DNA of 64,000 nt from assembly GCF_003019035.1 (NCBI RefSeq), contig NZ_CP027447.1. One strand, given 5' to 3'. The notes below the pieces were generated by a model. The model was not told where the DNA came from and searched no databases. It was given only the letters and a program-made list of their open reading frames with translations. The stretch is from Escherichia coli. Its GTDB lineage: Bacteria > Pseudomonadota > Gammaproteobacteria > Enterobacterales > Enterobacteriaceae. Below are positions 5,951 through 62,160 of the stretch, piece after piece. The translations under genes were made by a program, and so were the position numbers. Numbering within the stretch: position 1 is the stretch's first letter; every line of letters starts with the position of its first letter.

Positions 5951-6294
5951 AGAAAAGTGAATTTGAACGGGGAGACATTGTGCTGGTTGGCTTTGATCCA
6001 GCAAGCGGCCATGAACAGCAAGGTGCTGGTCGACCTGCGCTTGTGCTCTCCGTTCAAGCCTTTAATCAACTGGGAATGACGCTGGTGGCCCCCATTACGC
6101 AGGGCGGAAATTTTGCCCGTTATGCCGGATTTAGCGTTCCTTTACATTGCGAAGAAGGCGATGTGCACGGCGTGGTGCTGGTGAATCAGGTGCGGATGAT
6201 GGATTTACGCGCCCGACTGGCAAAGCGTATTGGTCTGGCTGCGGGTGAGGTGGTGGAAGAGGCGTTATTACGTTTGCAGGCGGTGGTGGAATAA
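5944..6294 (+). CDS. chpB: ChpB (ChpBK) mRNA interferase toxin, MazF/PemK family, 116 aa
   Basis: PemK/MazF-like sequence; overlaps chpS stop as in the K-12 chpSB operon. Confidence 0.85.
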   Translation: MVKKSEFERGDIVLVGFDPASGHEQQGAGRPALVLSVQAFNQLGMTLVAPITQGGNFARYAGFSVPLHCEEGDVHGVVLVNQVRMMDLRARLAKRIGLAAGEVVEEALLRLQAVVE

Positions 6295-53639: not shown

Positions 53640-53724
53640 GCCGAAGTGGCGAAATCGGTAGACGCAGTTGATTCAAAATCAACCGTAGAAATACGTGCCG
53701 GTTCGAGTCCGGCCTTCGGCACCA
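53640..53724 (+). tRNA. leuX: tRNA-Leu (anticodon CAA)
   Basis: GCCGAAGTGGCGAAATCGGTAGACGCAGTTGATTCAAAATCAACCGTAGAAATACGTGCCGGTTCGAGTCCGGCCTTCGGCACCA; anticodon loop TTCAAAA; encoded CCA end. Confidence 0.95.
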
Positions 53725-60249: not shown

Positions 60250-61518
60250 CTAAAATCTACATGTAAGGTGGTAATGTTGCCTTGGCGGCACTAAATTGCC
60301 GTCAAGTAAAGGCTCCACAAAAGTGTTTTTGGGATTGATGGGATGGATTTCTATCTTCATCGCTTCAGTGATGACTTGGTGCTTTGCGGGGCGTCTAAGA
60401 ATTGGGATTTTAAGTTGTCTCAGCAGACGATAAATCGTATCAAGGTAAGGGATGGTTTCCATCCATCTGAATGCTGAGACCTCGTAGCTTTGATTAGGCA
60501 TCTCTTTTACGGCTATAGTAGCTATCGCTTTCTTACTCCCTGCTAAAGCTTCCGAGGAACACTTCTCTTCTACATAAGCGACAGCACTTTCGTCTTTACC
60601 TGCATGCCTATCAATAATAAAAGCTTCGAAGGAGTTTTTAACGTTTTCCTTTAATATTTCGTTTGGATTCGCTTTAGTGATAGTTGCTTTTAGGTCAAAC
60701 AGAAAGCCGTTATCGCGTTCTGGTCTATAATCGAGTTTACCCTGCAAGGTCGACCATGAATAACACTTAGCTAATTGCGAAGCTTTGAAAGCAATCCCGG
60801 CGTATTCGAATGAGAAACCATTCATTTTACCTGTAGATGTGATATTGGGTAATGCATTAATATTTTGTTCAAAAAGCTGTTGGACAAACTCAGTGGTCGA
60901 TACTCTTTTAGAAACTAACGTCTCTAAAGCGTTCTGGATGATGGTTTTTGGGCATTGTTCACCTGTCCTTTTCTCTTGCATCGCTTCATTTCGTGTTTTT
61001 TTTCGTTTTAGTTTAGGGCAGGGCAATGCTAAAGAGGTTTTTGTTTTAGGGCCTTTGGTTCTTAGTAGCGAATAGTCGTGTTCAAGCTGTTGGATAATGC
61101 GTGTACTAATCAGGTTTTCATTTTTTCCGAGATAGAGTTTGCCTGTAATACGGTCTATGCGGCTGGCGATAATGTGGATGTGTTGACCGACCGCATCGTC
61201 ATGCAACACGTAGCATCTGAGATGCGTTTCCGAGAAGCCGATGCGCTTCATATAGTCATCAGCTATAGCGGACCACTGAGCATCGGTTAGCACTTCGTCC
61301 TTTGGTAAACGAAGCGAATTGTGCCAAACAGGTTTATCCACATCAGGGCGAAGCGTTTTTGTTAGATTGAATTCAGTGATCAGATCTTTCGCTGCACACC
61401 CATCCATATTTCCCCCGATCACGACAGGAGCTACCCTATGATGAGAATCTGGTTTTAACGTATAGAGGACGATCCCGATAAAATTCTTACCTCTGCGGAT
61501 CTTTTGCATTCCCTTCAT
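60250..61518 (-). CDS. Mobilization relaxase (MobA/VirD2-type), about 422 aa
   Basis: Histidine-triad-like motif HDDAVGQHIHIIASRID typical of relaxases; ATG at 61518 with GGGGAG RBS, overlapping mobC 3' end; track ORF starts at an upstream TTG. Confidence 0.75.
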   Translation of the reverse strand: MKGMQKIRRGKNFIGIVLYTLKPDSHHRVAPVVIGGNMDGCAAKDLITEFNLTKTLRPDVDKPVWHNSLRLPKDEVLTDAQWSAIADDYMKRIGFSETHLRCYVLHDDAVGQHIHIIASRIDRITGKLYLGKNENLISTRIIQQLEHDYSLLRTKGPKTKTSLALPCPKLKRKKTRNEAMQEKRTGEQCPKTIIQNALETLVSKRVSTTEFVQQLFEQNINALPNITSTGKMNGFSFEYAGIAFKASQLAKCYSWSTLQGKLDYRPERDNGFLFDLKATITKANPNEILKENVKNSFEAFIIDRHAGKDESAVAYVEEKCSSEALAGSKKAIATIAVKEMPNQSYEVSAFRWMETIPYLDTIYRLLRQLKIPILRRPAKHQVITEAMKIEIHPINPKNTFVEPLLDGNLVPPRQHYHLTCRF

Positions 61519-61924
61519 CGGAGTCTCCCCACAAGTCGGCGGTGATGAGATGTAAGCGAAGATCGGCAATTTGTCGCTTCACTGCAAATAGTTCCGTTTT
61601 TGTCAGGTGGCTTCCGGTACTTTTGTTATCAAGGTGGGCAACAATTTTATTTAGTTTCTGTGAAAGGTCAGCTAAAGATCTCCATGCTTTTATATTAATA
61701 GCTGGAACAACACCAGGAAGCGCATTAAGAAAAGATAAACGAAGCCATTCCCCTTTGCGATGCTGGCCACGTTTTTCATTTAGAAGCGTCAGCTCTTTAT
61801 CATTAAGCCTGACACTGACGCAATGATTACGAATTTGCTTGCGTGAAAGCTTCGTTTCGCAAGAGCTTCTACAGGAAGCTCGCGTATTTATAATAGTCTT
61901 ATTGAAATTATTATTACTGACCAT
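61487..61924 (-). CDS. mobC: MobC-type mobilization accessory protein (145 aa)
   Basis: Characteristic RLNDKELTLLNEKRGQ... segment directly upstream of the relaxase; AAGAGG RBS. Confidence 0.7.
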   Translation of the reverse strand: MVSNNNFNKTIINTRASCRSSCETKLSRKQIRNHCVSVRLNDKELTLLNEKRGQHRKGEWLRLSFLNALPGVVPAINIKAWRSLADLSQKLNKIVAHLDNKSTGSHLTKTELFAVKRQIADLRLHLITADLWGDSDEGNAKDPQR

Positions 61925-62054
61925 ATTAACCTCTTTTTAAATATATAAATAAAAATATTATTTTATTTATATAATAAAATAGTCAGATGTCAATATACAT
62001 GTATTATATTGATTTTAACTTTTTTCAACTGAAAGGCGAAAAAACAAGGGGAAA

Positions 62055-62084
62055 CTCAATGAAGCAGCGTAGCGCTTCGTTGAG
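62055..62084. promoter_or_regulatory. Candidate oriT inverted repeat upstream of mobC
   Basis: CTCAATGAAGC-(8 nt)-GCTTCGTTGAG imperfect 11-bp inverted repeat in the AT-rich region between mobC and the divergent gene. Confidence 0.4.
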
Positions 62085-62160
62085 TTAGCCCTTGCTTTAA
62101 CAATATTGACCAAAATCTCTTTTTAATATAAAATGAATCCTAAGAGGGATGGAGGTATAC

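Follow-up and report, generated by a model that had tools for sequence, protein, structure and literature searches.

Does the spacer between the mobilization (mob) genes and the first cargo gene of an Escherichia coli chromosomal island contain the origin of transfer (oriT) of that island? This question is raised by positions 61925-62160 of the 64,000-nt stretch of contig NZ_CP027447.1 (assembly GCF_003019035.1) that we analysed, hereafter the window, for which an initial annotation had proposed a candidate oriT hairpin and two divergent promoters. By folding the region as single-stranded DNA (ssDNA) and comparing it with relatives of the locus and with described plasmid oriTs, we found that a conserved unit at 62020-62096 is very probably the oriT of an 11.8-kb integrative mobilizable element located at tRNA-Leu(CAA). 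At the sequence level, it is well supported that this predicted oriT, carried by an integrative mobilizable element, is related to but distinct from the IncQ-3 type.

Two hairpins and a core in the spacer

The spacer lies between a minus-strand open reading frame (ORF) of 145 aa and a plus-strand gene of 187 aa and, as had been described, is AT-rich, with 27.1% G+C over its 236 bp (G+C of 0.118 at 61925-62017, 0.432 at 62018-62098 and 0.290 at 62099-62160). The imperfect 11-bp inverted repeat reported at 62055-62084 is present as well, its arms CTCAATGAAGC (62055-62065) and GCTTCGTTGAG (62074-62084) differing by one mismatch, although it is only the inner portion of a bigger repeat with arms of 25 nt that are 84% complementary (62041-62065 and 62074-62098). 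Besides the size of the repeat, the initial annotation missed the more informative feature, an invariant core 3' of it. The ssDNA fold of 62035-62105 has an energy of -18.9 kcal/mol, a value that none of 200 dinucleotide shuffles reaches (-7.15 ± 1.89; z = -6.2), and the minus strand of the main hairpin (hairpin B, described below) reaches -17.6 kcal/mol (z = -5.6). Because of these z-scores and of the conservation of the repeat, we reject a chance origin. An Rfam scan of 61000-63000 returned only a spurious sub-threshold match to a small nucleolar RNA (SNORA63, 30.6 bits where the gathering score is 90).

On the plus strand, the conserved unit begins with the small hairpin A, continues with hairpin B, which is long and bipartite, and ends in the core TTAGCCCTTGCT. 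Hairpin A (62020-62044), defined from the ssDNA folds of 61 unique homologues, pairs TTTTTTC with GAAAAAA around the loop AACTGAAAGGC, which reads AACCGAAGGGC in most relatives; it precedes hairpin B in Enterobacterales and carries compensatory changes in four loci (L003, L035, L054 and L083). Hairpin B (62045-62094), placed by ssDNA folds and an inverted-repeat search, has an outer stem CAAGGG (62045-62050) / CCCTTG (62089-62094), with the basal consensus (A)GCAAGG / CCTTGC(T), and an inner stem formed by 62053-62065 and 62074-62086 with AAC.. and ..GTT at its base. It is capped by a GC-GTA-GC mini-hairpin (62067-62073) and carries a 3'-side bulge, A62087 and G62088, which in homologues comprises one or two unpaired bases. 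The core, a putative nic region, occupies 62085-62096 and occurs only once within the window.

A second motif lies 5' of the main hairpin. CCGAAGG(G), present in the window as ACTGAAAGGC (62029-62038), recurs at this place both in the present family and in IncQ-3-like plasmids, as seen ahead of the hairpins of L085, L087 and L008, and may be a binding site for the accessory protein.

We then asked how far this unit is conserved, as the candidate oriT would lose its footing if related elements lacked the repeat. By retrieving 75 loci from one-genome-per-species contigs through alignment of the relaxase N-terminus alone, that is without presupposing the repeat, we found the 15-mer GAGTTAGCCCT[TG]GCT (with at most 3 mismatches) after a hairpin in 50 of the 75 loci, on the strand opposite to the relaxase gene and 428-590 nt before its start. 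In about 9 further loci the 15-mer is located farther upstream of the relaxase with its orientation unchanged, so that the repeat is conserved in about 60 of 75. The hosts of these loci include Enterobacterales, Pseudomonas, Acidithiobacillus, Gallionella and Polaromonas, and their relaxases are 36-75% identical to that of the window. Within E. coli, blastn of 61990-62165 gave matches in 614 of 5426 complete genomes (about 11%), nearly all of them spanning only about 62021-62099 and falling in unannotated DNA. In CB9615, 1283, EC21Z-048, CFSAN061761, EC28 and NCTC8623, the match lies directly upstream of a homologous accessory/relaxase pair while the genes on the opposite side vary from locus to locus. 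No match was obtained when the spacer was compared by blastn with a plasmid collection.

The 61 unique homologues also allowed us to look at how the stems and the core evolve. First, folding each sequence separately as ssDNA gave a near-uniform architecture, with a basal stem, a 3' bulge, an inner stem and an apical triloop, and a median z-score of -4.7. Second, the basal pairs of the inner stem covary (AACTC/GAGTT, AACTG/CAGTT, AACCA/TGGTT, AACTT/AAGTT, AATTC/GAATT, AACCC/GGGTT and AACTA/TAGTT, among others), and the outer stem CAAGG/CCTTG is also seen as CCAGG/CCTGG, CGAGG/CCTCG and CAAGA/TCTTG. An unbroken run of 5 or more Watson-Crick pairs, counted from the stem base, was kept by 55 of the 61 homologues but by only 3.2% of chimeric controls, in which the right arm had been swapped for that of a sequence with a different arm. 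These per-sequence folds and the anchored stem test were used since an alignment of 43 trimmed hairpins with MAFFT and RNAalifold misaligned stems of unequal length and returned a trivial 3-bp helix. Third, the independent folds show C-G (42), T-A (6), A-T (5) or G-C (4) pairs at position 1 of the 15-mer, and A-T (50), C-G (4) or G-C (2) pairs at position 12, which belongs to the outer stem. The apical triloop follows the GNA pattern, which is especially stable in DNA, on the plus strand in 39 of the 61 sequences; in 8 it does so on the minus strand. Fourth, TTAGCCCTTGCT is near-invariant, with about 1.3-2 bits per position; information stands at about 1.9 bits at T62096, then drops to 0.7 at the next position and to about 0.1 thereafter. 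The selection of the sequences inflates the values within the 15-mer but leaves the fall outside it unbiased. Homology to the relatives stops at 62096-62097, directly after the core, where the cargo starts.

Kinship with described origins of transfer

The unit shares with MOBP/MOBQ oriTs its position beside a relaxase/accessory operon in fixed orientation, a hairpin immediately 5' of a conserved nic-region sequence, and a nic-region sequence that changes with the relaxase clade. Ordered by relaxase identity, the core is TTAGCCCTTGCT in the clade of the window, ..TTTATCA in relatives at 56-58%, TTACACCTTGCT at 37% and CATCCTG at 23-24% (R751 TraI and pTC-F14 MobA). The core differs clade by clade and therefore follows the relaxase lineage, the behaviour expected of a nic region. 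Position, orientation, covarying stems, fixed core and kinship to the IncQ-3 core thus bear out the candidate oriT hairpin of the initial annotation, as a prediction from sequence.

In the subclade with relaxases at 56-58% identity (L032, L039, L040, L043, L049, L051, L058 and L076), a different hairpin, which precedes the motif ..T[A/G]TTTATCA, occupies the region about 350-450 nt upstream of the relaxase gene; this hairpin and motif were also placed at 2150-2215 of L007. The motif is presumably a different nic region.

The closest described system is that of the IncQ-3 plasmids (pGNB2, pBRST7.6, pQ7 and pJF-707), whose putative 12-bp oriT core TTACACCTTGCT was derived by homology from Loftie-Eaton & Rawlings 2012 (PMC7557826) and matches TTAGCCCTTGCT at 10 of 12 bases. 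The relaxases of IncQ-3-type plasmids (pJF-707, pUL3AT, pBRST7.6 and kin), which MOB-suite types as MOBP, are 37% identical to ours over about 275 aa. The layout is alike too: the accessory and relaxase genes point away from a short hairpin with an AAC..GTT base and a AAGCGNAGCG apex, followed by the core. In L085, for example, AACCA-agcgaagcgc-TGGTTACACCTTGCT is found upstream of mobC; the core is also present in L087 and L088, and variants of the layout were seen in one plasmid each of Komagataeibacter and Aeromonas. However, IncQ-3 plasmids encode a MobA-RepB fusion (PMC7557826), in contrast to the relaxase of 422-439 aa without primase found here, and the carrier here, an integrated island, brings its own integrase and has a different Rep. 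Assignment to the IncQ-3 type proper was rejected, as the 12-bp core is matched only in part, the relaxase is not a MobA-RepB fusion and the accessory protein stays below the Pfam threshold for MobC.

More distant likenesses link the unit to IncP (R751) and IncQ-2 (pTC-F14). There too, the relaxase operon points away from the repeat, the repeat precedes the nic region on the strand that runs away from the operon, and a ribbon-helix-helix (RHH) accessory protein is used (TraJ or MobB), as here. The inner part of the R751 repeat includes AACCGGC..GCCGGTTAGC, and a GC-GTA-GC mini-hairpin and a AAGCGTAGCGC motif are found in pTC-F14. In IncP (RP4/R751) and IncQ-2 (pTC-F14, pTF-FC2) oriTs, a long inverted repeat is followed by the nic sequence YATCCTG|Y, with the hexamer 8 nt 3' of the repeat. 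R751 and pTC-F14 differ from the present locus by a relaxase identity of only 23-24% and by their CATCCTG nic region, and no TraK-like or other extra mob gene accompanies the operon here. An IncP-type oriT was rejected, given that ATCCTG is absent from 61925-62160 and present in R751 and pTC-F14.

Proposed transfer and other roles for the hairpin

By analogy with MOBP/MOBQ relaxosomes (RP4 TraJ/TraI, R64 NikA/NikB and R1162 MobC/MobA), the RHH accessory protein encoded at 61487-61924 would bind the repeat region and help the HUH relaxase encoded at 60250-61518 to reach the plus strand. The relaxase would then cut this strand within or at the end of the core and remain bound to the 5' end. Our best guess for the nick is CCCTTG|CT, between G62094 and C62095 on the plus strand, a placement suggested by two analogies, a distance of about 8 nt to the inner stem and, in IncP, the cut ..CCTG|C. 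The plus strand would be exported 5' to 3' by the type IV secretion system of a helper; the cargo side, with the sce7726 and PD-Lambda-2 genes, would therefore enter first and the mob genes last. Finally, the hairpin and core would re-form in the single strand and be recognised for the closing cut-and-join reaction.

Several observations weigh against assigning an oriT to 62020-62096. First, the IncP-type nic consensus YATCCTG|Y was not found in the spacer. Second, the core is partly base-paired, being itself the 3' strand of the basal stem in the predicted hairpin, while the best-studied MOBP/MOBQ nic sites lie in a single-stranded tail 3' of the repeat. Third, about 11 relaxase relatives (56-58% identity) lack the TTAGCCCTTGCT core and have another hairpin and motif. 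Fourth, covariation in an inverted repeat can also come from a dimeric DNA-binding protein, and in Enterobacterales the minus strand carries a T-run after the hairpin, which opens a role as terminator. Fifth, the IncQ-3 core is itself termed putative in its source (PMC7557826). Lastly, MOB-suite (via PLSDB) types the four closest plasmid carriers, L007, L008, L009 and L086, as non-mobilizable. These four plasmids encode a relaxase and an accessory protein despite that typing, which probably reflects only that the relaxase clade is missing from the MOB-suite reference set.

We considered what else the hairpin could be. On the minus strand of the window, hairpin B is directly followed by TTGTTTTTTC, much as a T-run would follow the G+C-rich stem-loop of a Rho-independent terminator, and the built-in scan did not report the full hairpin. 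The corresponding A-run 5' of the hairpin is seen in 30 of the 61 unique sequences, and in L004, L005, L006, L091 and L095 minus-strand cargo genes end near the hairpin, that of L006 one base from the match. A secondary, lineage-specific role as terminator in Enterobacterales, beside the oriT, is possible, if on the doubtful side. That the hairpin would be mainly a terminator, stopping cargo transcripts before the mob promoter, is in turn very improbable. Half of the sequences have no T-run, among them the examined non-Enterobacterales relatives that keep hairpin and core, and the adjacent cargo gene in the window points away from the hairpin. Moreover, termination would not hold a 12-nt sequence invariant across classes of Pseudomonadota, and the related core is the putative oriT of the small IncQ-3 plasmids.

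Equally slim are the chances that the repeat is only an operator, through which a dimer of the RHH accessory protein would regulate the divergent promoters with no nicking involved. RHH proteins do bind inverted repeats, proteins of the TraJ, NikA and MobC type bind the repeats of oriTs, the repeat is located between two promoters, and correlated changes in the arms are what a symmetric binding site would show. Yet binding by the accessory protein is already within the oriT model, so that the operator explanation denies only the nick. The stems, moreover, vary widely, from 7 bp with 3-nt loops to 13 bp with extra apical hairpins, whereas the asymmetric core on their 3' side is invariant; the hairpin lies at least 25 nt upstream of the -35 box of the mob promoter, and intact copies exist with no accessory gene nearby (L003, L093 and L094). 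Least credible of all is another kind of ssDNA site, either for recombination or cassette exchange (attC-like) or for priming (ssi), since the bulged hairpin, its covarying stems and a backbone/cargo junction that maps to the core both ways would suit it, but both an integron integrase and a second flanking site are missing and the unit accompanies a relaxase clade and changes when the clade changes.

An integron attC, whose hairpin base carries RYYYAAC/GTTRRRY core sites and which comes with an integron integrase and arrayed cassettes, was also considered as such and rejected: AAC/GTT lie in the inner stem and the hairpin base is CAAGG/CCTTG, the window holds one copy, and the only integrase is of the P4 type, at the tRNA.

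The mob operon, the island and its cargo

Next to the oriT predicted at 62020-62096, the relaxase gene occupies 60250-61518 on the minus strand and matches the Pfam Relaxase domain (PF03432, E = 2e-24). We placed its start at 61518 (MKGMQKI..., 422 aa) according to the RefSeq homologue, whereas the mechanical ORF extends to a TTG at 61569 (439 aa). The protein has an N-terminal tyrosine, Y19, and the motif H-x-D-x4-H-x-H (HDDAVGQHIHI); in an alignment, Y19, H106, D107, H113 and H115 are invariant across six homologues. It consists of a relaxase domain with no primase fusion, shows weak NCBIfam matches to Bacteroid_MobB and TraI_MobP_relax, and gave no match in a phmmer search of the PDB sequences.

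The 145-aa gene (61487-61924, minus strand), which overlaps the relaxase start by 32 nt, had been labelled mobC. Its product has no match to MobC (PF05713) in a Pfam search, and its homologues favour another family: among seven of them, the NikA-like PF21983 is matched by two at E ≤ 0.001 and six at E ≤ 0.1, and PF05713 by none and two, respectively. Pseudomonas homologues display the canonical NLNQL motif in the alignment. On this basis the protein is best described as a NikA/MobC-like RHH accessory protein of the relaxosome that has diverged. The label mobC finds only partial support; the protein itself falls below the Pfam MobC threshold. In the E. coli strains STEC17-183 (L002, 5106-6308) and JNEC-KY179, a deletion has joined the accessory and relaxase genes into a 400-aa coding sequence annotated as relaxase; the match to the window begins at 61617 and the oriT region is unaltered.

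Both promoters that the spacer was expected to hold are predicted and plausible at the sequence level. For the accessory-relaxase operon, we found a minus-strand promoter at 61966-61993, with a -35 box TTGACA (61993-61988), a 16-nt spacer and a -10 box TATAAA (61971-61966), and a ribosome-binding site AAGAGG at 61935-61930. About 30 Enterobacterales loci share the arrangement TTGACA-16-TATAA[A/G/C] on their mob strand, at a distance of 65-112 nt to the core; the promoter scan is silent on it because its -10 box lacks the final T. On the plus strand, the scan gave TTGACC-17-TAAAAT (62106-62134, 10 of 12 matches) as the promoter of the 187-aa gene, a member of the sce7726 family. This promoter is identical in the orphan locus L003, and moves along with the cargo. 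An AT-rich palindrome at 61931-61982, whose 22-29-nt arms are 72-86% complementary, overlaps both the mob promoter and the 5' untranslated region, and another palindrome, AAGCATA..TATGCTT, is found at its position in E. coli relatives. It may be an operator; the sequence is of low complexity and the palindrome could have arisen by chance.

The island measures 11.8 kb and is bounded by an 18-nt repeat of the 3' end of tRNA-Leu(CAA), with copies 11,811 bp apart. The repeat lies at 53701-53718 of the window and at 1296-1313 and 13107-13124 of L001, the right end being beyond the window. The sole recombinase of the element is a P4-type integrase using the tRNA-Leu 3' end, and a second island with a P4-type integrase adjoins this one in tandem at leuX. 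The sce7726-family gene (62161-62724, plus strand; NF033832, E = 9e-44; PADLOC 'cll', E = 1e-22) is the first cargo gene and is followed by a PD-Lambda-2_C gene for a beta-family protein (62707-63822, minus strand; PADLOC, E = 3e-47). Past the end of the window (L001, 9762-12859), the PD-Lambda-2-like set continues with an ImmA/IrrE peptidase and a GNAT acetyltransferase.

By comparing loci pairwise, we found that the combination of backbone and cargo changes at the core. Pairs with mob sides that are 95-99% identical have unrelated cargo flanks; conversely, the cargo flanks of L006/L018, L020/L031, L004/L033 and window/L003 are 94-99% identical and their mob sides just 60-83%. In every such pair, and in both directions, the switch falls inside the 15-nt invariant core, which fits either recombination at the sole shared stretch or relaxase-mediated exchange at the oriT. 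Many copies of the unit have no relaxase close by, and intact orphan copies of hairpin and core, with no relaxase or accessory gene within 3 kb, were found in XJW9B277 (L003, about 5990-6065), APEC O78 (L093, 3063-3077) and 025542-1 (L094, 3054-3068). They sit among defence-type genes (type I restriction-modification, an ABC-three-component system and a 1646-aa helicase/methylase). When 781 E. coli genomes were sampled at even spacing, 16 out of 40 rows matched the hairpin only. A more speculative idea, which we regard as unlikely, is that the oriT core also serves as the crossover point at which anti-phage cargo is swapped between unrelated backbones, through relaxase-catalysed exchange between oriTs, and that the hundreds of relaxase-less copies in E. 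coli are functional orphan oriTs. If true, such orphan oriTs would let defence islands be mobilized in trans by the relaxases of sister elements.

These observations can be set against two recent studies of mobilizable islands. Ares-Arroyo et al. took the first intergenic region of more than 50 nt upstream of each E. coli chromosomal relaxase, clustered these regions into 52 families, and described islands with a relaxase (iMOB) and without one (iOriT), with defence genes concentrated beside the oriTs (bioRxiv 10.64898/2026.01.13.699239). The spacer at 61925-62160 is the region that their procedure would capture in an iMOB, and is possibly already among the 52 families; the orphan copies L003, L093 and L094 fit their iOriT class. 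Those families are defined at the level of regions, neither delimited nor tested, whereas hairpin, core and junction are delimited here to the nucleotide. In the other study, PIMEs are defined by trbJ/trbL and an IncP-like oriT with an IncP nic, the two characterised elements lying beside guaA (bioRxiv 10.64898/2026.01.12.698999). The present island resembles them in having int, an alpA-like regulator, rep and a transfer module adjoining a large defence-rich accessory region. It was not assigned to the PIMEs, as it has another core and a tRNA-Leu site; no trb gene is annotated in the near-identical S19-651 copy, where no search was aimed at trb.

Almost no relaxase-bearing chromosomal islands had a known oriT (bioRxiv 10.64898/2026.01.13.699239). 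Here, one putative chromosomal-island oriT is narrowed down to about 77 nt that include a 12-nt core and a predicted nick site, and what our analysis adds is this delimitation at the nucleotide level, the covariation of the stems, the link to the IncQ-3 core and the observations on the junction and the orphan copies. The core marks the border between a conserved mobility backbone and a variable defence load, PD-Lambda-2/sce7726 in this island and restriction-modification, ABC-three-component and other systems elsewhere. This raises the questions of which helper plasmids move such defence islands and of whether islands devoid of a relaxase move in trans.

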